Below are positions 1,969-47,119 of a DNA stretch of 64,000 nucleotides, piece by piece (positions within the stretch are counted from its first letter, which is position 1; the number at the start of each line of letters is the position of its first letter). This DNA is from an uncultured Acidobacteriota bacterium (GTDB taxonomy: Bacteria; Acidobacteriota; UBA6911), in the NCBI GenBank assembly GCA_963843575.1, contig CAWJKZ010000010.1, positions 384,001 through 448,000 of the forward strand, written 5' to 3'. The notes under the pieces are model-generated. The model was not told where the DNA came from, did not search any database, and saw only the letters and a list, made by a program, of their open reading frames with translations. The translations under genes and the position numbers were made by a program.

Positions 1969-3624
1969 TTGGCTGCAAATGACCGCCCATCCCTTTTTTC
2001 ACGGCTGAAGTGGAGCGGCTACCTGGCGGCCCAGATGCGGGGTCAGCAGCGGCTGCCCTTCCGCTCGCCGGAAGAGCTGGAGCGGATCCAGAGGCGTCGC
2101 CTGCACGCCATGGTGACGCACGCATACCGAACGGTGCCGTATTATCGCGAGACGATGGACCGCCTCGGCCTGCGGCCGACGGATTTTCACGTCGTCGCGG
2201 ACCTGGCGAGACTCCCGGTCATCGAACCCAGCGACCTCCAGACGGATGCGGAGCGGTTCCTTTCCTCCCGGCGTCCCCGGGATCATTACATCCTGCTCCG
2301 CACGGGCGGCAGCACGGGCGACCCACGGCCGGTTTATCACAGCCCGGAGGGGATTTTTCAGAACGCCGCCCACGGCGAACGCGAACGGTGCATCGTCTGG
2401 GCGCTGCTGGGCAAGCGTTTCGGCTACAAGGAAACGGTCATCGCCTCCCTCAACTGCACCGCCGCGAAACTGCAGGACTTCGTCCAGTCGCGCGGCCTCA
2501 TGCCGGGCGGCCTGAGGATCCGTCGGCAGTATCTGTCGCTGTCGGACACGCCCCAGAAGAATGTCGCCCTGATCAACGAATTCAAACCCGACATCATCCA
2601 CACGTACGGTTCCTACCTCGAGATCCTGTTCTCGTATCTGGCGGATTCCCGAGAAGGGTTCCACCGGCCCGTGACGGTCACCTACAGTTCCGACGGCCTG
2701 GACGAGTGGGCCCGACGCCTGATCCAGGACTCATTCGGACTCCCGGTCTTCAGCACCTATCAGGCTAACGAAGCGCTCAAGATCGGCTTCGAGTGCGAGC
2801 AGCACCTCGGACTTCACCTCAACGTCGATCTCTACCCGGTGCGTATCGTGGACGCTTCGGGCCGTGACGTCCCCGCCGGGCAGACGGGGGACCTGGTCGT
2901 GTCAAATCTGGTGAACAACGCCACGGTGCTCCTGAACTACAGGCTGGGCGACCTTGCTGCGATGCTCGGGAGGAGTTGTCCCTGCGGGCGGACGCTGCCG
3001 CTGCTGTCTTTCCCGCCGGGGAGGTGCGACGATCTCGTTGAGTTGCCCTCGGGCCGGATCATTCACCCGCAGGCGGCCCGGACGGTGTTCATGGCGGAAG
3101 GCGGCGTCCGGCAGTTCCAGATCGTTCAACGATCCCCCACGCGTTTCGACATCAAGATAGTCGTGGCGCCCGGCACCGATCATGCGGGTTTGCAGGACCG
3201 CGTCGCCCGGGAATTCGTCAACCGGTTCGGTGCCGAGGTGAGCACGGACATTCAGTTTGTGGACGCTATCGACCGCACCGCCGCCGGGAAGTTTCGCCCG
3301 GTGATATCGCTTCATCCCCGGTCATGCCACCCCGCGACGGCCGGAGTCCCCGGCGGCTGGGCAGGATCGTCGAGCCACGGCGGGCAGTCCTGCGACGGAT
3401 TCCGGCGGGCTGTACTGGGATGGTGTCGCACGAGACTGGCAACGCGACGCCCGGCAGCAATTGTGGAGAAGATATTGCGACGCTCTGCACAGCGCACTGC
3501 TGGACCGCTGGCTCGGCCGGGAGCGTTTCCAGTCGGCACTAAAGACCGACCTGTTCGACGAGGCGGTTGCCGACGGGCTTTATCCCTTCCTCGCCTCCAG
3601 GGCGTCCGAGGTTACGGCGGTTGA
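1969..3624 (+). CDS. Phenylacetate-CoA ligase/CapK-like adenylate-forming enzyme; natural end probably near 3330
   Basis: RTGGSTGDP P-loop, YRLGDLA, CPCGRTLP..GR.DD and GKFRPVIS; the tail after about 3330 is non-homologous and overlaps the next gene. Confidence 0.8.
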   Translation: MAANDRPSLFSRLKWSGYLAAQMRGQQRLPFRSPEELERIQRRRLHAMVTHAYRTVPYYRETMDRLGLRPTDFHVVADLARLPVIEPSDLQTDAERFLSSRRPRDHYILLRTGGSTGDPRPVYHSPEGIFQNAAHGERERCIVWALLGKRFGYKETVIASLNCTAAKLQDFVQSRGLMPGGLRIRRQYLSLSDTPQKNVALINEFKPDIIHTYGSYLEILFSYLADSREGFHRPVTVTYSSDGLDEWARRLIQDSFGLPVFSTYQANEALKIGFECEQHLGLHLNVDLYPVRIVDASGRDVPAGQTGDLVVSNLVNNATVLLNYRLGDLAAMLGRSCPCGRTLPLLSFPPGRCDDLVELPSGRIIHPQAARTVFMAEGGVRQFQIVQRSPTRFDIKIVVAPGTDHAGLQDRVAREFVNRFGAEVSTDIQFVDAIDRTAAGKFRPVISLHPRSCHPATAGVPGGWAGSSSHGGQSCDGFRRAVLGWCRTRLATRRPAAIVEKILRRSAQRTAGPLARPGAFPVGTKDRPVRRGGCRRALSLPRLQGVRGYGG

Positions 3625-4195
3625 CGTCTCACCGGAAATCGCGACTGCCGCCGGCGGGAAATACCCTGCGCTGCGGGTCCACCGGGCCGACGTACGCCGC
3701 CTTCCTTTTGCCGACGCCTCGTTTGACCTGGTGGTGTCGGACTCGACACTGGACCACTTCGCTTCCCGCGAAGGCATCCTCGCGGCGCTGGGCGAGCTGT
3801 CACGGGCACTCCGCCCGGGGGGGCGCCTGGTGCTCACGATGGACAACCCCGCAAACCCGTTCGTGTGGCTTCGCAACCACATGCCTCTGCGCCTGCTCAT
3901 GCGCTTGGGACTGGTCCCCTATTTCGTGGGGGCCACCGGCGGGCGACGATGGCTGGAGCGCAGCCTGCGGCAAGTCGGCCTGGCCGTCGTGCAATCGACC
4001 GCAATCATGCACTGTCCACGCGTCGTCGCGGTAGCCTCCGCCAGCCTGGCGGGCAACCGCGCCGACAACAGGAAGCAGGAGGCCTTCCTGCGCCGCCTGA
4101 TGGCCTGGGAAAGGCTGGAGAGCTTCCCGACCCGCTACACCACAGGCCATTTCGTCGCGGTGCTCGCGGCAAAACCGGGGCCGGCTGGAGCGTAA
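3461..4195 (+). CDS. Class I SAM-dependent methyltransferase
   Basis: AVDVSP, ADVRRLPFADASFDLVVSDSTLDHF and LRPGGRLVL motifs; frame stays open upstream (LYWDGVARDW), so true start is probably earlier. Confidence 0.8.
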   Translation: MWRRYCDALHSALLDRWLGRERFQSALKTDLFDEAVADGLYPFLASRASEVTAVDVSPEIATAAGGKYPALRVHRADVRRLPFADASFDLVVSDSTLDHFASREGILAALGELSRALRPGGRLVLTMDNPANPFVWLRNHMPLRLLMRLGLVPYFVGATGGRRWLERSLRQVGLAVVQSTAIMHCPRVVAVASASLAGNRADNRKQEAFLRRLMAWERLESFPTRYTTGHFVAVLAAKPGPAGA

Positions 4196-38354: not shown

Positions 38355-40148
38355 TCAGCCCTGGAAAAGAACCGCTCCGCGCATGAGCAGATGCTCCACC
38401 ACCGGACCCAGCGACAGCACCGGGAAGAACGTGAGGGCACCGACAATGACAACCGTTCCCACCAGCAAACCAACGAACAGAGATCCGTGGGTCGGCAGCG
38501 TCCCACTCGTGAAAGGGACGCGCCCCTTTGCGGCCAGGCTCCCCGCAATGGCGAGGATCGGTACGATAAACAGGAAACGCCCGATCAACATCGCGAGCCC
38601 GATCGTCAGGTTGTACCAGGGAGTATTCGCGTTCAGCCCGGCGAAGGCGCTCCCGTTATTCCCCGTTCCGCTGGAATAGGCATAGAGTATTTCGGTGAAC
38701 CCGTGCGGTCCGCCGTTGTTCAGATTCGCCGTTGCAGGCCCGGGAGGATTCCAATACCCGTCTTTGGCAAAAGGGATCACCGAACTCAGGCCGGAGAAAA
38801 CAAGGATCGTGGCGGCCGCGGCGAGCAACGCAATCATCGCCATCTTCACTTCTTTCTGTTCGATCTTTTTGCCGATGTATTCCGGGGTCCGGCCAACCAT
38901 GAGACCCGCGATGAAGACGGCGAGAATCGCATAGACCAGCATCCCGTACAGGCCCGAACCCACTCCACCGAAGATGACTTCACCGGTCTCGATATTGAAC
39001 AGCGCGACCAACCCTCCCAGGGGCGTCAGGCTGTCGTGCATAGTGATTACCGCCCCGCAACTGGCATCGGTCGTGATCGTGGCAAACAGGGCTGAAGCCG
39101 CATTCCCGAAACGGACCTCCTTGCCCTCCATGTTGCCGCCGGGCTGCGCGCCTGTGTAATAGCTTTCGACTCCCGTGCCGGCCAGCACGGGATTGCCGGC
39201 CTGTTCCGACCAGTAGCTGGCGAATGCCCCTGCCAGAAAAAGAGCAGACATGGCAGCCAAGATCGTCCAGCCCTGGCGCGTGTCGCCCACCATCCTGCCG
39301 AACGTGTAGGTCAGGCCGGCCGGGATGCACAGAATAAGCAGCATCTGGAAGAAGTTCGACAGCGGCGTCGGGTTTTCATAGGGGTGCGCCGAGTTCGCGT
39401 TGAAAAAGCCGCCGCCGTTGGTCCCCAGCATTTTGATCGCTTCTTGAGATGCGACGGGCCCCTGCGGCAGTACTTGAATGCCTCCCTCGACTGTCTGAAC
39501 GGTTTTGTAGCCACCGAAATTCTGGATGACACCCTGGGAGCAAAGGAAAAGTGCCGCTGCGAGGGATGCGGGCAAAAGGATGTAAACGGTGCAGCGGGTC
39601 AGATCCACCCAGAAGTTGCCTATGGCAGTCGCGGTCTGCCGGGCGAAACCACGGATCAACGCGATGGCAACGGCTATCCCGACTGCTGCAGAGGCAAAGT
39701 TTTGGACGGCCAGGCCCGCCATCTGTACGAAGTAGCTCATCGTGATTTCAGGCACATACGACTGCCAGTTCGTGTTGGTCATGAAACTCACTGCAGTATT
39801 GAAAGCCAGGTCGGGGGTGATGCTGATGGCATCTTTCGGAGCGCCCGCCGTGCCGAAATGTTGCGGATTGAATGGCAACAGCCCCTGGAGGCGCTGCATC
39901 GCGTACAGCAGCAGGAAACTGCTCAGGCTGAACGAGAGCAGGGACGCGGCATACTTCGACCACCCCTGCTCGCTATCCTCCTCGACACCTCCGAACCGGT
40001 AGATCAGTTTCTCGAGCGGACGCAGGAGCGGGTGCAGGAAGGTCCGTTCGCCTTCGAAGACCCGGAGCATGAACAGCCCGACGGGTTTGGCAATGGCCAG
40101 CAAGACAGCAACATAGATGAGGATCTGGACGACACCGGCAGCGCTCAT
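38355..40148 (-). CDS. kdpA: K+-transporting ATPase subunit A
   Basis: [22 protein letters not shown] and NNGSAF. Confidence 0.97.
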
Positions 40149-41338: not shown

Positions 41339-42166
41339 TCAGTGGAAGGATTCGATCGCGAGCATTGGAGTGCCGTCCTTCGTCGATGTCCCTGCCAGCA
41401 GGGTTCTCTTGGGGGGGACCCGCGTCAGCGCGGGTTGCGGAAAGACCGCTATGCGTTTGTGCAGCAGGACCGTCGGGCCGATCACGATGACGGCAGGGGG
41501 CTGGACCTCCTCCCATCCTTCCAAGGCTTCGGCCAGCGTCGTCACCACCGCGCGCTGCGACTCCAGCGTTCCGCTCTCGATGACCGCGACCGGCACCGAG
41601 CCGTCGACACCGTCGTCGAGCAGGAGGCGCCGGATTTCCGGAAAGCCGTCGACGCCCATCAGGATTACCAGGTTTCCGGCACTGCGATAGAGAGCAACAT
41701 AGTCGGGCGTCGAAGCCCCGGCGCACCGGTGCCCCGTCACAACCGCGAAGCTGTCCGAAACACCGCGGAACGTCAGGGGGATGCCGGCCGCAGCCGGCAC
41801 CGCGAGCGCGCTCGTTACCCCCGGAACCACTTCAAAAGCAATGCCTCTCGCGGCGAGGAAAGCTGCTTCCTCGCCCCCGCGCCCGAAAACGAATGGATCT
41901 CCCCCCTTCAGACGCACGACGGTCTTGCCCATTGCGGCGTACCTCGCGAGCTGTTCGTTGATGTGGTCCTGGCAGAGGGCGTGCGCTCCCGGCTTCTTTC
42001 CCGCATAGATCCGTTCGGCTTCGGCCGGAGCCTCCTCGAGCAGCGCAGAACTCACCAGGCGGTCATAGACGATCACGTCGGCCGCGCGGATGCGCTCCAG
42101 GCCGCGCAGCGTGATGAGCCCTGGATCTCCGGGGCCGGCACCCACAATGTACACTTTGCCGTTCAT
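41339..42166 (-). CDS. cobA: Uroporphyrinogen-III C-methyltransferase
   Basis: VGAGPGDPGLIT, VYDRL, RLKGGDPFVFGRGGEE and VPGVTS. Confidence 0.95.
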   Translation of the reverse strand: MNGKVYIVGAGPGDPGLITLRGLERIRAADVIVYDRLVSSALLEEAPAEAERIYAGKKPGAHALCQDHINEQLARYAAMGKTVVRLKGGDPFVFGRGGEEAAFLAARGIAFEVVPGVTSALAVPAAAGIPLTFRGVSDSFAVVTGHRCAGASTPDYVALYRSAGNLVILMGVDGFPEIRRLLLDDGVDGSVPVAVIESGTLESQRAVVTTLAEALEGWEEVQPPAVIVIGPTVLLHKRIAVFPQPALTRVPPKRTLLAGTSTKDGTPMLAIESFH

Positions 42167-42789
42167 AAGTCCTCTCTCTCCTGGAGATGCTTCAGGACCG
42201 GGGCTTCGCCCTGCATCAGCCGAGGCAACACGTGCTCATCCAGGAGCCGGTACCAGGCCGCGCGCCGGAGACTTGCGTCCGGATAGCGCGCTTTCAGAAA
42301 GCCGCGCAGGCCGGCTAAGTCTTCGAGAACCTCCCCGAAAGGTTCTCCGAGAATGCCGCCCAGACAGTCCCGAATCCTGGAAGCGAACGCCGGGGCGGCA
42401 CCGGAAGTCGATACCGTGACGACGAGGTTGCCGCGGCGCAGCACGGCGGGAAAAATGAAGTCCGAATGCAGGGGATCATCGACGATGTTGACCAGGACGT
42501 TGCGGCTCCGCGCACAATCAAAGATCTCCCGGTTGACCGCGGGGTCGTCGGTCGCCCCCACCACGATCCACATCCCATCGAGGTCGGCAGGGACGAATCC
42601 CCGCCTCTCCCACGACACGCCGACTCCCCGGATCAGCTCCTGCACAGGATCGGTGAGCTGCGGGGCAATCACCCGGACACGAGCACCTCCCTGAAGAAGG
42701 GCGCGGATCTTCATGGCCGCCGCGACGCCCCCGCCCACGACAAGCGCCGACCGTCCGTCGAATTTCAGGTGTACAGGATAAAGATCCAT
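42163..42789 (-). CDS. Precorrin-2 dehydrogenase/sirohydrochlorin ferrochelatase (CysG N-terminal part, SirC/Met8-like)
   Basis: LVVGGGVAA..K, ATDD..VN, VNIVDDP..SDF.FP and VSTSGAAP. Confidence 0.92.
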   Translation of the reverse strand: MDLYPVHLKFDGRSALVVGGGVAAAMKIRALLQGGARVRVIAPQLTDPVQELIRGVGVSWERRGFVPADLDGMWIVVGATDDPAVNREIFDCARSRNVLVNIVDDPLHSDFIFPAVLRRGNLVVTVSTSGAAPAFASRIRDCLGGILGEPFGEVLEDLAGLRGFLKARYPDASLRRAAWYRLLDEHVLPRLMQGEAPVLKHLQEREDL

Positions 42790-42830
42790 AAAACGAAAAA
42801 CCCGCCACCTGCTCAGTGGCGGTGGCGGGC
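42790..42830 (-). terminator. Intrinsic terminator (attenuator) immediately before the siroheme operon start codon
   Basis: Minus strand CCCGCCACC-gccactgagca-GGTGGCGGG-TTTTTCGTTTT-ATG. Confidence 0.85.
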
Positions 42831-42858
42831 TCAGGAGTGTCGTTGATGTGTGCCTGGT

Positions 42859-42939
42859 TTAGACTGCGCCTTCCGCCACCCGGAAACCGCGCAGCGTGCA
42901 ACAACAGGCGCAGATCATGTTCGAGCGGCGGAGAACCAT
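42859..42939 (-). CDS. Cys-rich leader peptide, 26 aa (MVLRRSNMICACCCTLRGFRVAEGAV)
   Basis: 4 Cys in 5 codons; contains GGTGGCGG complementary to the terminator 5' arm; ATG 6 nt after the -10 box. Confidence 0.8.
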   Translation of the reverse strand: MVLRRSNMICACCCTLRGFRVAEGAV

Positions 42940-42945
42940 GCGAGA

Positions 42946-42974
42946 TTTATACCGCGCCACCCGTGCCCTGGCAA
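42946..42974 (-). promoter_or_regulatory. sigma70 promoter TTGCCA-N17-TATAAA
   Basis: -35 at 42974-42969, -10 at 42951-42946, exact 17-nt spacer. Confidence 0.7.
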
Positions 42975-42990
42975 GCCGAATGTGTAGTGT

Positions 42991-43010
42991 ATCTAATCCT
43001 CGGATTAGAT
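42991..43010. promoter_or_regulatory. Perfect palindrome ATCTAATCC-TC-GGATTAGAT, putative operator
   Basis: 9-bp perfect inverted repeat between the two divergent -35 boxes. Confidence 0.65.
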
Positions 43011-43015
43011 GATCG

Positions 43016-43044
43016 TTGACATCCGTCGCGGGCGCTGTTAGTCT
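43016..43044 (+). promoter_or_regulatory. sigma70 promoter TTGACA-N17-TAGTCT with extended -10 TG
   Basis: Consensus -35 at 43016-43021, -10 at 43039-43044. Confidence 0.75.
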
Positions 43045-43128
43045 TCGTCCCAGGATATACATTTGGACGGAGAGCGTCCCTTGGCAGCGAAAGCGACTGG
43101 AACCCGGACTGAAAAGAACGCGGCGGGA

Positions 43129-43206
43129 ATGACGGGGTTTGCCTGTTGCTGCATCTGTCGCGTGCCCGGGAACCGGTCTCTCGTCCATGAGACAATTGAG
43201 CCTTAG
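43129..43206 (+). CDS. Cys-rich leader peptide, 25 aa (MTGFACCCICRVPGNRSLVHETIEP); may start at in-frame TTG 43081
   Basis: 4 Cys in 5 codons; contains GGAACCGG complementary to the terminator 5' arm; GGAG RBS 8 nt before TTG 43081. Confidence 0.8.
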   Translation: MTGFACCCICRVPGNRSLVHETIEP

Positions 43207-43227
43207 CTCAAGGCCATCATTGGGACG

Positions 43228-43270
43228 AAAAAGCCCCGGTTCCTTCGAAGGAACCGGGGCTTTTTTATTT
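43228..43270 (+). terminator. Intrinsic terminator (attenuator) upstream of sulfite reductase
   Basis: GCCCCGGTTCCT-tcga-AGGAACCGGGGC (12-bp perfect stem) followed by TTTTTTATTT. Confidence 0.9.
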
Positions 43271-43323
43271 TGGGGCCGTTCAAACCCGAAAGACCAGGGG
43301 CCTTTCAGCTTCGAGGAGACCTG

Positions 43324-45507
43324 ATGCGCGACGCGAGTCTGGAGATTGCCCGGGACCGCGGTTTGGGCCTAACCGACACAGTGCGCGAGGAATTGGATGT
43401 TTACGAAGAGCTGATCCGGAAATACCGCGCCGGCCAGGTCGACGAAACCAAAATGCAGAAACAGCGGCTGCATTTCGGCACGTACGCGCAGCGCCAGGAA
43501 GGCGTGCAGATGCAGCGGATCAAAATCCCGGGCGGGCGCCTCACTTCCTGCCAGCTCGGTCGCCTTGCAGACGCGGCGGATCGTTTCGCCAGCGGGTTCA
43601 TTCACTTCACCACGCGCGAAGACGCGCAGATCTACTATGTCAAGCTCGATGAAGTACCTGCTCTTCTTCGTTTCCTGGCCGAGGCCGGCATCACGACCCG
43701 CGAAGCCTGCGGCAATACCGTCCGCAACATAACCTGCTGCTACCGTTCGGGCACGACCAAAGATGAGGCTTTCCCGGTGGCGCCGTACGCCGAAGCGCTC
43801 TTCCGTTATCTGGTCCGAAACAGGTACAACCAGAATCTCGGGCGCAAGTTCAAGATCACCTTCGAAGGCTGCACCGAAGACCACTCGCACCTGCGAATTC
43901 ACGACATCGGGCTGCTCGCCCGCCAGCGCCCCGATGAACACGGCAACGTCCAACGCGGATTCCGCATCTGGCTCGGGGGCGGCCTCGGGGCGGCTCCGCA
44001 GGTCGGCTTGCTCTATTGCGACTTCCTTCCCGAAGACGAGCTGTTCAACGTGGTCGCCGCAACGCTGCGTCTGTTCGATCGATACGGGGAGCGCAAGGCC
44101 AGGATGAAGGCGCGCATGAAATTCCTCATTCAGACCATGGGATGGGACCGATTCCGCGAGGAACTCGAGGCCGAGCGCATGCGCATGGGACCCGTCGACC
44201 TCCTCCCGGAATATCTCGCGGAAGCGCGCGACGTCGTTCCTCCTCTGACGGAACCGGATGCGGGATTCCGGGTGCTGGAGGGCCGCCTCGACGACGCCTC
44301 CTTTACCAGGTGGGTGCAGGACTCCGCTATCGAACACAGGATCCCGTGGCTTCGCGGCGTGCACGTACGCCTCAAAATGGGGGACATAACCGCGGAACGC
44401 GCGCGCCGTCTGGCGCTTCTGGCGCGCAGATTCTCGGCGGGAGAACTGCGGATCTCCATCGAGCAGAACATCTATTTCCCGTGGGTTTCCGCGGACGCTC
44501 TCCCCGACCTGTACGACGGTCTGGGCGAATTGTCGCTGGCCGATCCGGGCGCGGAGACCGTCGAAGACACGACGACCTGCCCGGGAGCCGATACGTGCAG
44601 GCTTGGCATTGCTTCAGCGAAAGGCCTGGGCAGCGTCATCTCCGAGGCCCTGACCGGCCCGGGGACCGCGCATCGCGAACTTGCCCGTTCGCTGCGTATC
44701 AAGGTCTCCGGCTGTCCCAACGGGTGTGCTCAACACTCGATTGCCGACGTCGGATTCCAGGCAGCGGCACTGAATCACGAAGGTCGTACGGTGCCGGCCT
44801 ATCTCGTGTCGGTGGGAGGAAGAGCAAATCTCGACGACGCCGAGTTCGGCCGGCTGATCGGGCGAATTCCGGCAAGGAACGGGGTGCCGGCCCTGCAGGC
44901 ACTCCTCGATCTGTTTAGTCGAGAGAAACTTCCGAACGAGACCTTCGGCAAGTTTGTGGACCGAGTGGGAGAGACCACTTTGAAAGCGGCGCTCGAGCCG
45001 TTGAAACACGTTCCGGCTTATGCGGAGGACCCGTCGTATTACGAAGACTGGGGACATGAGAACGAGCGTTTCGCCGTGCGGCAGGGTGTCCGGGGCGAAT
45101 GCGCCGGTGCGACAGTCGCAGAAACCGTGCCCACGATCGCGGCGGCGTGGGAATGGCTCGCCCAGGCGCGTGCCTTTTTGTATCACCAGGAGTACAAGTC
45201 GGCAGCCCTGGCCGCTTACGAGGCGGCCGCGTGTGCTGCCCGCGTTCCGCTGTATCAGCGTCTCGTCGATCCATTCACTTCGGATCAGGCTCTTTGGGAA
45301 TTCGAGAACATCTTCGTGCTGTCCGGCATGACGGGGGACGAGTGGAAAGATATCTCGAATTGGTTCGAGAGTCGGAAAAACCGGACGGCGGACGATGGGT
45401 CCGCTCGCGAAATTCTGGGTGGGGCGCAGCGACTGATCGAGTACTGTGCCTCATTCAACGAGGCGTCGCCGAAACCGGTGTCGCCCCCCGCAGGTGCGGG
45501 ACTGTAA
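43324..45507 (+). CDS. Ferredoxin-type sulfite (nitrite/sulfite) reductase hemoprotein with C-terminal HEPN-like extension
   Basis: HFTTR, ACGNTVRN, RKFK, TCPGADTCRLG and SGCPNGC siroheme/4Fe-4S motifs; RBS GAGGAG; adjacent to cysH. Confidence 0.92.
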   Translation: MRDASLEIARDRGLGLTDTVREELDVYEELIRKYRAGQVDETKMQKQRLHFGTYAQRQEGVQMQRIKIPGGRLTSCQLGRLADAADRFASGFIHFTTREDAQIYYVKLDEVPALLRFLAEAGITTREACGNTVRNITCCYRSGTTKDEAFPVAPYAEALFRYLVRNRYNQNLGRKFKITFEGCTEDHSHLRIHDIGLLARQRPDEHGNVQRGFRIWLGGGLGAAPQVGLLYCDFLPEDELFNVVAATLRLFDRYGERKARMKARMKFLIQTMGWDRFREELEAERMRMGPVDLLPEYLAEARDVVPPLTEPDAGFRVLEGRLDDASFTRWVQDSAIEHRIPWLRGVHVRLKMGDITAERARRLALLARRFSAGELRISIEQNIYFPWVSADALPDLYDGLGELSLADPGAETVEDTTTCPGADTCRLGIASAKGLGSVISEALTGPGTAHRELARSLRIKVSGCPNGCAQHSIADVGFQAAALNHEGRTVPAYLVSVGGRANLDDAEFGRLIGRIPARNGVPALQALLDLFSREKLPNETFGKFVDRVGETTLKAALEPLKHVPAYAEDPSYYEDWGHENERFAVRQGVRGECAGATVAETVPTIAAAWEWLAQARAFLYHQEYKSAALAAYEAAACAARVPLYQRLVDPFTSDQALWEFENIFVLSGMTGDEWKDISNWFESRKNRTADDGSAREILGGAQRLIEYCASFNEASPKPVSPPAGAGL

Positions 45508-46292
45508 TGAGTGAATCGCCTACTCCACACGAAATCCGCGAAGAACACCAGGTTCTCGTGGCAGGTCGTGTTTTGACTGGAGAAACTGCCTTGCCCGAAC
45601 AGCAGACGAGCTCGTTGTCGCTCTCCGAAAAAGTCGAGATCAGCAAGACCATCATCGAATATGCCATCAGCAAGCACCCGCGTATTTTTGCCGCGTGCTC
45701 CTTCGGCAAGGATTCCCGAGTGATTGTGGATCTTGCGGCGCAGGTTCGTCCGGAGATCCCGTTCATAGGCATCGACACCGGCTACGAATTCCCGGAAACC
45801 CTGGCGTATGCCGACGAGCTCGTGCGCCAAACCGGCGTACGCTTCCGGTGGGTGCGGCCATCGGACGAAGCGCGCCGCAGGATCGACGAACAGTACGGCG
45901 ATTCGTTCATCAGGAACGATCAGTACAAGTGCTGCGAGATGAAGATCCCGGCGATCGAGGGGATCCTGGCGGAATACGACGCCTGGATCACGGGTCTGCG
46001 GCGCGACGAAACCGAATATCGTAAGAATACGAGACTGATCGAGGCGGGAAGGGTCGCCAAGGTCAATCCCATCGCCTTCTGGAACAAGGAGGACGTCTGG
46101 AACTACATCAGCGGCAATGGTCTGAGTTATCACCCGCTGTATGACCTCGGTTATACCTCTCTCGGCTGCAAGCCCTGCACAACCGGCGGCAGAGTTCGTT
46201 CCGGTGGTGGCAGGCAGGGCCAGTTTGAGAGAGCAGGACGCTTCGCGGGCACATCCAATCAGGGACAGGAGTGTGGACTGCATCTGATCTGA
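45507..46292 (+). CDS. cysH: (Phospho)adenylyl-sulfate reductase, Fe-S (APS reductase) type
   Basis: SFGKDS, DTGY.FPET, KCCEMK, TGLRRDE, SLGCKPCT and ECGLH; TAATG coupling to the upstream gene. Confidence 0.93.
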   Translation: MSESPTPHEIREEHQVLVAGRVLTGETALPEQQTSSLSLSEKVEISKTIIEYAISKHPRIFAACSFGKDSRVIVDLAAQVRPEIPFIGIDTGYEFPETLAYADELVRQTGVRFRWVRPSDEARRRIDEQYGDSFIRNDQYKCCEMKIPAIEGILAEYDAWITGLRRDETEYRKNTRLIEAGRVAKVNPIAFWNKEDVWNYISGNGLSYHPLYDLGYTSLGCKPCTTGGRVRSGGGRQGQFERAGRFAGTSNQGQECGLHLI

Positions 46293-46519: not shown

Positions 46520-47119
46520 TCACTTCAAACTTGGAGCGATGAAGGCGTTCAACAAGGGAAACGACAATCCTCCCACGACGCGCTGCTCCTTGCCCTCCAT
46601 CGTGACGAAAAATGTGGGGGTCGACACCACGTTTCTCTTCTTGCCCAGGGCGATTTCGCGATCAATCGTCTCCTGGATCGCCTGGTCCTTCAGTCTTTCT
46701 CTCACCTTTTCCATTTCGCCCGGCGTAAGAACGCGGGCAACCACGCGATCGATGTTACCGTCGAAAGCCCATTCTGCCTGACAGGTATAGAGATATCTGA
46801 TGACTTTGATGAGCTGCTCTTGACCCAGGCCCGCGCACGCCACAGCGTAAGTGCTTGCGATCCTGGAGGATGCATGCACGGGAAGCGGAAGCTCGTGGAA
46901 AATGACCGCCACCTTGTTGCCGGAAGAGTACCGGTCCAACAGCGGGTCGACAGTGTCGAGATAAAACGTGCGGCAGGCCGGACACTCAAAATCCGAGAAA
47001 ATTTCGATCCTGACAGGGGAGTCGGGCCTGCCCATAAGATAATTCCCGGGAGCGTCGGTGCGGGTCGCTTCCACCGCCGGTTGTACCATGACCAGGAGTG
47101 CCAGCACGATCCAACTCAT
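46520..47119 (-). CDS. DsbA-family thioredoxin-fold protein
   Basis: FSDFECPAC and VVSTPTFFV; signal peptide. Confidence 0.88.
   Translation of the reverse strand: MSWIVLALLVMVQPAVEATRTDAPGNYLMGRPDSPVRIEIFSDFECPACRTFYLDTVDPLLDRYSSGNKVAVIFHELPLPVHASSRIASTYAVACAGLGQEQLIKVIRYLYTCQAEWAFDGNIDRVVARVLTPGEMEKVRERLKDQAIQETIDREIALGKKRNVVSTPTFFVTMEGKEQRVVGGLSFPLLNAFIAPSLK

Follow-up and report, generated by a model that had tools for sequence, protein, structure and literature searches.

Two predicted cysteine-responsive transcription attenuators back to back between the siroheme and sulfite reductase operons of an uncultured Acidobacteriota bacterium

How might a bacterium adjust both sulfite reduction and the supply of the siroheme cofactor to its need for cysteine? 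The question is raised by a 535-bp intergenic region (positions 42790-43323) in a 64,000-nt stretch of contig CAWJKZ010000010.1 (C10 below), which belongs to assembly GCA_963843575.1 of an uncultured Acidobacteriota bacterium with a genome of 6.68 Mb and 64% G+C. We refer to the whole stretch as the window, and positions without another label are counted from its first nucleotide. The intergenic region sets apart two divergent operons, with two siroheme synthesis genes on the left and a sulfite reductase gene (sir) followed by cysH on the right. Classical leader-peptide attenuators of transcription include trpL of Escherichia coli, hisL of Salmonella, and leuL, thrL and pheL, and to our knowledge cysteine is among the few amino acids for which no textbook-style, terminator-type system of this kind is established. 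In Acidobacteriota, which abound in soil, gene regulation has hardly been charted. According to PMC2965389, almost none of the attenuators predicted in them has an assigned function. We propose that the region holds two independent ribosome-mediated (leader-peptide) transcription attenuators, both predicted to read the supply of Cys-tRNA(Cys), and we put the probability of this reading at about 0.8.

Sequence and computation establish the parts of the proposed system on both strands. Each strand has a short open reading frame (ORF) with four Cys codons within five, and both were found as open frames with the peptides given in a first-pass annotation, which had read the sequence alone and had described a mirror-symmetric pair of leaders. 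In the rightward ORF, which precedes sir, the Cys codons lie at 43144, 43147, 43150 and 43156 (codons 6-10), and in the leftward ORF they start at 42912, 42906, 42903 and 42900, which are codons 10-14 of a long form beginning at ATG 42939 (Table 1). A short form of the leftward ORF, from ATG 42918 to TAA 42859, reads MICACCCTLRGFRVAEGAV. The in-frame ATG 42939, 21 nt upstream of 42918, sits 6 nt after the sequence TATAAA, and the same arrangement is found in a second genome of the same genus that was used for comparison of the intergenic region (the congener below). The leftward ORF may be a leaderless ORF of 26 codons from this ATG, in which case segment 1, the upstream pairing partner described below, would lie inside the ORF, as it does in trpL.

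Behind each ORF, a pattern scan places the expected intrinsic terminator, a GC hairpin followed by a T run, on the correct strand; the scan gave four sites in the region against 1.2 ± 1.1 in shuffled sequences. The hairpins fold with -27 kcal/mol on the right and -23 kcal/mol on the left (RNAfold). Taken as a whole, the right leader is strongly structured (z = -5.95, with 0 of 200 shuffles folding as well), and the left leader less so (z = -2.13, with 7 of 200 as good). The two 8-nt segments that had been noticed inside the ORFs as complements of the terminator 5' arms are likewise present: GGAACCGG at 43169-43176 complements CCGGTTCC at 43236-43243 in the rightward terminator, and GGTGGCGG at 42880-42873 complements CCGCCACC in the leftward one, where a repeat of CGCCAC in the arm allows the antiterminator two pairing registers. 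The two leaders thus follow one logic with different pairing sequences, GGGAACCGG on the right and GGTGGCGG on the left, each matching its own terminator. The antiterminator helices, of 8-11 bp, share the terminator 5' arm and are therefore mutually exclusive with the terminator on both strands.

The dependence of these pairings on the position of a ribosome was examined in a thermodynamic model, for which each leader was cut just before the 3' arm of its terminator and 28 nt around a chosen A-site codon were made unpairable. In the free right leader, segment 2 (43166-43178), the antiterminator strand, pairs with segment 1 (43095-43107), and the terminator arm stays free. The probability of the right antiterminator helix (GGGAACCGG with CCGGUUCCU) is 0.12 in the free RNA and 0.11 with a ribosome at the first Cys codon; it reaches 0.87, 0.80 and 0.63 at the second, third and fourth, and is 0.00 at the stop codon. 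In the free left leader, segment 2 is held in an 11-bp helix with segment 1 (42932-42922 with 42882-42872). The expected number of pairs between the left terminator 5' arm and the downstream leader is 1.6 in the free RNA, 12.5 at each of the first two Cys codons, 10.2 at the third, 4.9 at the fourth and 3.9 at the stop codon. A codon-by-codon scan of the left leader peaks at the Cys codons and falls to 0-0.8 from codon 18 onward, because the ribosome then covers segment 2. The two leaders of the congener behave in the same way. In both leaders of the window a ribosome on the Cys codons frees the antiterminator in this model, and the trp/his-type architecture suggested earlier (a Cys-codon run, a terminator, and a mutually exclusive, ribosome-dependent antiterminator) is recovered on both strands.

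These properties are consistent with the following course of events. Each promoter would start a transcript that begins with the short ORF and its four Cys codons. When Cys-tRNA is plentiful, the translating ribosome would presumably run through, segment 2 would be covered or paired again with segment 1, the GC hairpin with its U run would form, and RNA polymerase would halt before the operon. When Cys-tRNA is scarce, the ribosome would stall on the Cys codons and break the pairing of segments 1 and 2; segment 2, lying 12-20 nt downstream of the last Cys codon and just outside the stalled ribosome, could then pair with the emerging terminator 5' arm, so that transcription continues. Read-through would lead to sir-cysH on the right and to the two siroheme genes on the left, and therefore to joint induction of sulfite reduction and cofactor supply. 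Translation of the leader ORFs, stalling, and a kinetic choice between the helices are presumed steps of this scheme. It is most likely, judging from the sequence, that a shortage of Cys-tRNA switches both operons on.

The same signal could in principle be read out differently, by translation initiation or Rho-dependent polarity, with the hairpins masking ribosome-binding sites or stabilizing the RNA. The left side offers some ground for this, since hairpin and T run abut a cysG-N start that has no Shine-Dalgarno sequence, so that opening of the hairpin could affect translation, and the mycobacterial polycysteine system acts on translation (bioRxiv 10.1101/834739). Against it, each hairpin is a GC stem of canonical form with a T run behind it, and sir has a GGAGGAG of its own about 55 nt past the right terminator, at a start that is unpaired with the Cys codons. 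Moreover, in genomes of this class, elements consisting of a hairpin and a T run are found at gene 3' ends, which fits the use of intrinsic termination in these genomes. We consider such a read-out unlikely as the main function of the two hairpins. As a separate observation, cysG-N has no Shine-Dalgarno sequence in 42787-42801, and the T run reaching its ATG is kept in all four orthologous leaders; the left hairpin may influence translation initiation of cysG-N as well.

Arrangements of this kind are rare in the genome. Short ORFs with at least four Cys codons in six number 87 in the 6.68 Mb, eight of these 87 are followed by a terminator, and two of the eight are the leaders of this one intergenic region. 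In a scan with a looser Cys criterion (three Cys in six codons) and a strict terminator, five of 883 qualified, among which the right leader alone is convincing; the left leader is missing because a length filter excluded it. The candidate at C12:196534 was rejected, as it lies inside a sulfatase gene on the other strand. Four of the eight leader Cys codons are TGT, compared with 22% in long ORFs, an enrichment of the rarer codon that is not significant (P = 0.078). A tRNA family search of the genome added nothing. A search of 42000-44000 against Rfam 15 with E up to 10 returned 26 matches, none of them near its gathering score (best 30 versus 65 bits). The last result bears on the idea that the nascent peptide or the leader RNA senses some other signal, such as a small molecule, a metal or the redox state, rather than Cys-tRNA charging. 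Nothing in the sequence specifically favors this idea; no Rfam family reaches its gathering score here and the peptide sequences are unconserved apart from Cys, while Cys-tRNA is the natural signal because the regulated genes make the sulfide precursor of cysteine. We regard this as the least probable of the alternatives.

A sensor of this type should recur at homologous loci, and elements of its design do recur. All four family genomes with a sir of at least 71% identity (G001, G003, G008 and G009) have a Cys-rich short ORF upstream of it. For a wider comparison, 52 sir loci were taken from public genomes, 51 of which could be assessed in the 380 nt upstream of the first operon gene. In 28 of the 51 loci the sir or cysG operon has a Cys-rich short ORF with a terminator in front of it, compared with 0 of 51 on the antisense strand and 13 of 1040 random windows taken from these loci. 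One further locus (L066), scored negative, carries the element on inspection and was missed because the estimate of the gene start was off. By record label, positive loci were found in Pyrinomonadaceae (6 of 7), Blastocatellia (3 of 4), Terriglobia (2 of 2), Vicinamibacterales (2 of 6), Gemmatimonadales (1 of 7) and Heliobacteriaceae (1 of 1), as well as in 13 of 19 loci labelled Acidobacteriota or Acidobacteria without further detail; the single loci from Gemmatimonadetes, Gemmatimonadota, Omnitrophica, Elusimicrobia and Actinomycetes were negative (each 0 of 1). None of the results depends on G034, a genome flagged as unpublished.

Across 19 leaders (those for which a terminator had been found, plus the left leader of the window), a helix of at least 7 nt is present in 15, and in 14 it begins 12-20 nt after the last upstream Cys codon. 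The antiterminator sequence varies by subfamily (GGGAACCGG, TGAGCGG, CGATAGTGGGC, GGTGGCGG) and still complements the terminator of its own leader. Twelve sir-type leaders share GGAACCG and CGGTTC; aligned, they show 93.6% pairing in the terminator and 96.2% in the antiterminator, and the most conserved strand is the terminator 5' arm, which has two partners. These leaders were chosen by a motif search, with one (L057) added by hand, and their invariance is therefore partly by construction. A covariance model built from the twelve gave full-length matches in 5 of 137 class genomes, one in each and all before sir; as the five are source genomes of the model or their equivalents, this result speaks to specificity only. 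Ten other matches of the model were inspected and discarded as plain terminators.

The siroheme side can be compared without selection by motif. In G001, G008 and G009, which represent three genera, the cysG orthologue is preceded by a Cys short ORF of its own and by a terminator abutting the start codon; in G003, where cysG follows sir in one operon, cysG has no leader of its own. When four cysG leaders, chosen by gene orthology, are aligned, TGTTG, GGGTGGC (in segment 2) and AGCCCGCCACCG (in the terminator 5' arm) are invariant. Both leader types thus precede orthologous genes in other genera, so that Cys runs are conserved at homologous loci.

Conservation of the ORFs as open frames with Cys clusters might also suggest that they encode functional Cys-rich micro-proteins, metal- or redox-active, with the hairpins ending small independent transcripts. 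The pattern of conservation speaks against this: the length (19-50 codons) and all non-Cys residues outside segment 2 vary freely, and the other conserved residues are encoded only by segment 2 (AAC CGG in the sir type and GTG GCG G in the cysG type), which indicates a constraint on the RNA. In addition, the elements always stand directly upstream of sulfur-assimilation genes on the same strand. A micro-protein function is accordingly highly improbable.

As for the start of transcription, the sigma70 promoters with 17-nt spacers proposed in the first-pass annotation exist as hexamer pairs on both strands and are conserved in the congener; they were identified by eye, and a strict promoter scan of 42600-43500 flagged no site. 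In the rightward promoter region, TTGACAT and GCTGTTA are conserved in the congener. With the by-eye promoter, about 77 nt of leader would precede the rightward ORF. A perfect 20-nt palindrome lies between the two -35 elements; in the congener it forms a conserved island flanked by insertions of 25 nt and 11 nt, and it probably binds a transcription factor that adds a further layer of control to the attenuators. It was rejected as a regulon motif, as the genome contains a single exact copy, and a copy with one mismatch adjoins an alginate-lyase-like gene and no sulfur gene.

The position of the palindrome and its retention in the congener would also suit a scheme in which a protein bound there is the sole regulator, the terminators are constitutive attenuators or insulators, and the Cys codons have no sensing role. 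This scheme is very unlikely, since it leaves unexplained why Cys runs precede sir or cysG in so many loci on the sense strand and in none on the antisense strand, why the Cys codons fall where a ribosome frees the antiterminator, and why segment 2 tracks the sequence of each terminator. Protein control at the palindrome and attenuation are compatible and can coexist.

Several observations weigh against a pair of ribosome-mediated attenuators. In full-length equilibrium folds the terminators (12-16 bp, compared with 8-11 bp for the antiterminators) form in every state, and the switch must therefore be kinetic, as in known attenuators. The right leader yields no antiterminator with a ribosome at the first Cys codon, and does yield one with a ribosome on codons 1-3. 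Its stop codon lies 27 nt past segment 2, so that a terminating ribosome leaves segment 2 unmasked, unlike in trp. A canonical Shine-Dalgarno sequence is absent at both ORFs; the right one has GGCGGGA 2 nt before its ATG, and the left one has none. In the comparison of relatives, the Cys-rich ORFs upstream of sir and cysG were found as anticipated, and covariation within the sir-type alignment was not significant: the helix is kept by invariance, and 180 of 500 shuffles reach its covariation score. Taken individually, only 7 of the 19 leaders beat 95% of their shuffles (at most 25 of 500 shuffles matching the complementarity). Scoring of antiterminators by minimum free energy (MFE) alone in 18 leaders was noisy and depended on an arbitrary 5' end. 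Finally, one soil metatranscriptome run, in which a fraction of 0.04 of the words sampled was present, yielded just one contig, 151 nt long and of 90-95% identity over 42710-42807 that is uninformative on expression or transcript ends.

Why should one locus have two such leaders? Most relatives have their siroheme genes within the sir operon and under one leader. Terriglobia and other Pyrinomonadaceae have these genes behind sir, and in Gemmatimonadales and Vicinamibacterales cysG, cobA and sir form one operon, with a Cys short ORF and a terminator before cysG in 10 of 26 such loci. A divergent cysG-cobA operon beside sir was seen only in the congener among the loci examined; in G008 and G009, cysG and sir are on different contigs. 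The back-to-back arrangement is therefore found in two of the four genomes that have both leaders, both of one genus. In the simplest history, the siroheme genes would have split from the sir operon, and a second leader that came with the split would have preserved co-regulation. A different pair occurs in a metagenome-assembled genome (MAG) of the Pyrinomonadaceae (L051), in which a leftward leader (MVLVFTRLPCCCCCMATC..., containing five consecutive Cys; 2268-2422, minus strand) and a terminator precede a cysteine-synthase-like PALP (cysK-like) gene, and a rightward Cys leader (2680-2900, plus strand) precedes sir. Leaders before cysG-cobA-sir in Vicinamibacterales-like MAGs (L062, L063, L068, L074-L077 and L081) often read ..(A/T)CACC(C).., which resembles ICACCC in the left leader of the window, a likeness over too few residues to be taken as homology.

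A third Cys-rich short ORF was noticed elsewhere in the genome of the window, on contig C25 (302196-302074, minus strand; 3400-3720 of locus L085). It encodes MAGLLSCICCSCGELYLPGG, or a longer peptide from an upstream ATG, and together with a hairpin and a T run it precedes a gene for a 165-aa protein of the beta-carbonic-anhydrase (beta-CA) family, whose closest solved relatives are Rv1284, a carbonyl sulfide hydrolase and a CS2 hydrolase. A Cys short ORF and a hairpin also stand before the beta-CA orthologue in G001 and G011, and not in G008. In all three beta-CA leaders a promoter scan places a sigma70-like -10 element whose end is 6-7 nt before the ATG of the short ORF, which suggests that these mRNAs are leaderless. 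The terminator pattern scan gave no site at the beta-CA leaders, and their hairpins come from RNAfold only. Tentatively, the family may possess a regulon built on interchangeable Cys leaders, some of them leaderless and yet coupled to terminators, which would comprise sir-cysH, the siroheme genes, the cysteine synthase gene in one relative, and the beta-CA-like gene, which we take to be of clade D with solved relatives that include carbonyl sulfide (COS) and CS2 hydrolases. If so, cysteine starvation might induce an enzyme that releases sulfide from carbonyl sulfide, and leaderless, terminator-coupled leaders would form a bridge between the polycysteine short ORFs of mycobacteria and classical attenuation.

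The genes flanking the region are as first described, with siroheme genes on the left and sulfite reductase and cysH on the right, according to Pfam and NCBIfam profiles (Table 1). The cysG-N protein matches NAD_binding_7, Sirohm_synth_M and CysG_dimeriser in Pfam and TIGR01470 with 158 bits (cutoff 62). The NCBIfam matches of the Sir-family protein are under equivalog cutoffs, and sulfite is its likely substrate because cysH adjoins. Closest public relatives of the genome carry the labels Acidobacteriota, Blastocatellia or Pyrinomonadaceae. Farther out, a DsbA/thioredoxin-like gene (46520-47119, minus strand) converges with the end of cysH, and a gene for the KdpA potassium-ATPase subunit (38355-40148, minus strand) lies beyond the siroheme operon; both look ordinary. 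Within the right leader, a single compensatory change in the congener falls in the hairpin that contains the stop codon. The right terminator, nearly a perfect palindrome, is preceded by an A run and followed by a T run; the pattern scan flags it on both strands, and it could stop antisense transcription from the sir side too.

Table 1. Positions of genes and predicted regulatory features at the locus
Feature	Position	Strand	Basis or remark
cobA/sirA-type uroporphyrinogen-III C-methyltransferase	41339..42166	-	Pfam TP_methylase; NF004790 285 bits (cutoff 198)
cysG-N, siroheme synthase N-terminal-domain protein (precorrin-2 dehydrogenase/ferrochelatase type), 208 aa	42163..42789	-	First leftward gene
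Left intrinsic terminator and T run	42790..42831	-	Stem 42831-42800; T run abuts cysG-N ATG at 42789
Leftward leader ORF, long form MVLRRSNMICACCCTLRGFRVAEGAV	42859..42939	-	From ATG 42939; stop TAA 42861-42859
Left segment 2, antiterminator strand CGGGTGGCGGA	42872..42882	-	Core GGTGGCGG at 42880-42873; folding, complementarity
Left segment 1 TCCGCCGCTCG	42922..42932	-	Pairs with segment 2 in free RNA; 11-bp helix in MFE and centroid
-10-like hexamer TATAAA, leftward promoter	42946..42951	-	By eye; 17-nt spacer; ends 6 nt before ATG 42939; kept in congener
-35-like hexamer TTGCCA, leftward promoter	42969..42974	-	By eye; identical in congener
Perfect 20-nt palindrome ATCTAATCC-TC-GGATTAGAT	42991..43010		Between both -35 elements; candidate regulator site
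Promoter-like TTGACA-17-TAGTCT	43016..43044	+	By eye; upstream TG at 43036-43037
Right segment 1 GACTGGAACCCGG	43095..43107	+	Upstream of ORF; pairs with segment 2 in free RNA (MFE)
Rightward leader ORF MTGFACCCICRVPGNRSLVHETIEP	43129..43206	+	ATG 43129 to TAG 43206
Right segment 2, antiterminator strand	43166..43178	+	Core GGGAACCGG at 43168-43176; constrained folding
Hairpin with leader stop codon, bridging segments 2 and 3	43181..43226	+	Folding
Right intrinsic terminator	43228..43271	+	Stem 43233-43260; 12 bp, up to 16 bp with A/U extension; T run 43261-43271
sir, sulfite reductase hemoprotein (NirA/Sir family), 727 aa	43324..45507	+	Pfam NIR_SIR, NIR_SIR_ferr
cysH, APS/PAPS reductase	45504..46292	+	Pfam PAPS_reduct; NF002537 182 bits (cutoff 154)

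If confirmed, the leaders would constitute a simple, protein-free sensor of cysteine and would also mark the sulfur-assimilation regulons of uncultured soil bacteria. The two together would be a natural case in which a single signal, charged tRNA(Cys), coordinates an enzyme operon and its cofactor pathway through two unrelated RNA sequences. Our literature search, which did not extend to subscription journals and supplements, found no Cys attenuator for sulfate assimilation or siroheme genes, nor one in Acidobacteriota. The first-pass annotation knew of no described paired Cys attenuator with intrinsic terminators, nor of one in this lineage; as regards Cys attenuators of the terminator type in general, a predicted cysS leader has been reported from Rhodobacterales (PMC8632094). 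Its remark that poly-Cys leader ORFs are known in actinobacteria is correct (PMC1262725 and bioRxiv 10.1101/834739).

The closest precedents in Cys-codon content act in other ways or at other genes. The leaderless polycysteine short ORFs of mycobacteria (Canestrari et al. 2020, bioRxiv 10.1101/834739), whose authors considered uORF-mediated attenuation for cysteine previously undescribed, are translational: the Cys tract pairs with the downstream Shine-Dalgarno sequence, and transcription termination was not seen with the reporters. The leaders described here resemble them in having Cys-codon runs upstream of sulfur or cysteine genes, in their predicted Cys-responsive attenuation, and in a possible leaderless start in the left and beta-CA leaders, but differ in having intrinsic terminators and antiterminators, and in that their Cys codons pair within the leader and not with the start regions of sir or cysG. 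In Actinobacteria, short ORFs with runs of Cys codons precede cysteine-synthesis operons (Seliverstov et al. 2005, PMC1262725), as they precede sulfur-assimilation operons here; those leaders were reported without terminators and Rho dependence was suggested for them, whereas terminators are present here. The leader uORFC-8-2, upstream of cysS in Rhodobacterales (Brewer et al. 2021, PMC8632094), is likewise predicted to act by ribosome-mediated attenuation and likewise combines Cys codons with an intrinsic terminator. It is set apart, judged by its description, as an alpha-proteobacterial element with two tandem Cys at about codons 14-15 and two stems before a Cys-tRNA synthetase gene, unlike the leaders with four Cys codons before sir-cysH and cysG-N-cobA.

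With the classical attenuators of amino-acid operons, as summarized in bioRxiv 10.1101/834739 and PMC1183508, the two leaders share a short ORF in which codons for the end product cluster, an intrinsic terminator ahead of the first structural gene, an antiterminator that uses the terminator 5' arm, and a pairing of segments 1 and 2 that favors termination in the free RNA. They differ from them in that cysteine would be the amino acid sensed and that the genes serve sulfite and APS reduction as well as siroheme synthesis and do not form a linear amino-acid pathway operon. Further differences are the location of right segment 1 upstream of its ORF, the distant stop codon of the right leader, the possibly leaderless left ORF, and the placement of two units back to back. 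The evidence supports viewing the locus as textbook attenuation logic applied to an amino acid, a pathway and a phylum for which we found no description, with two unrelated leaders standing back to back as its local twist.

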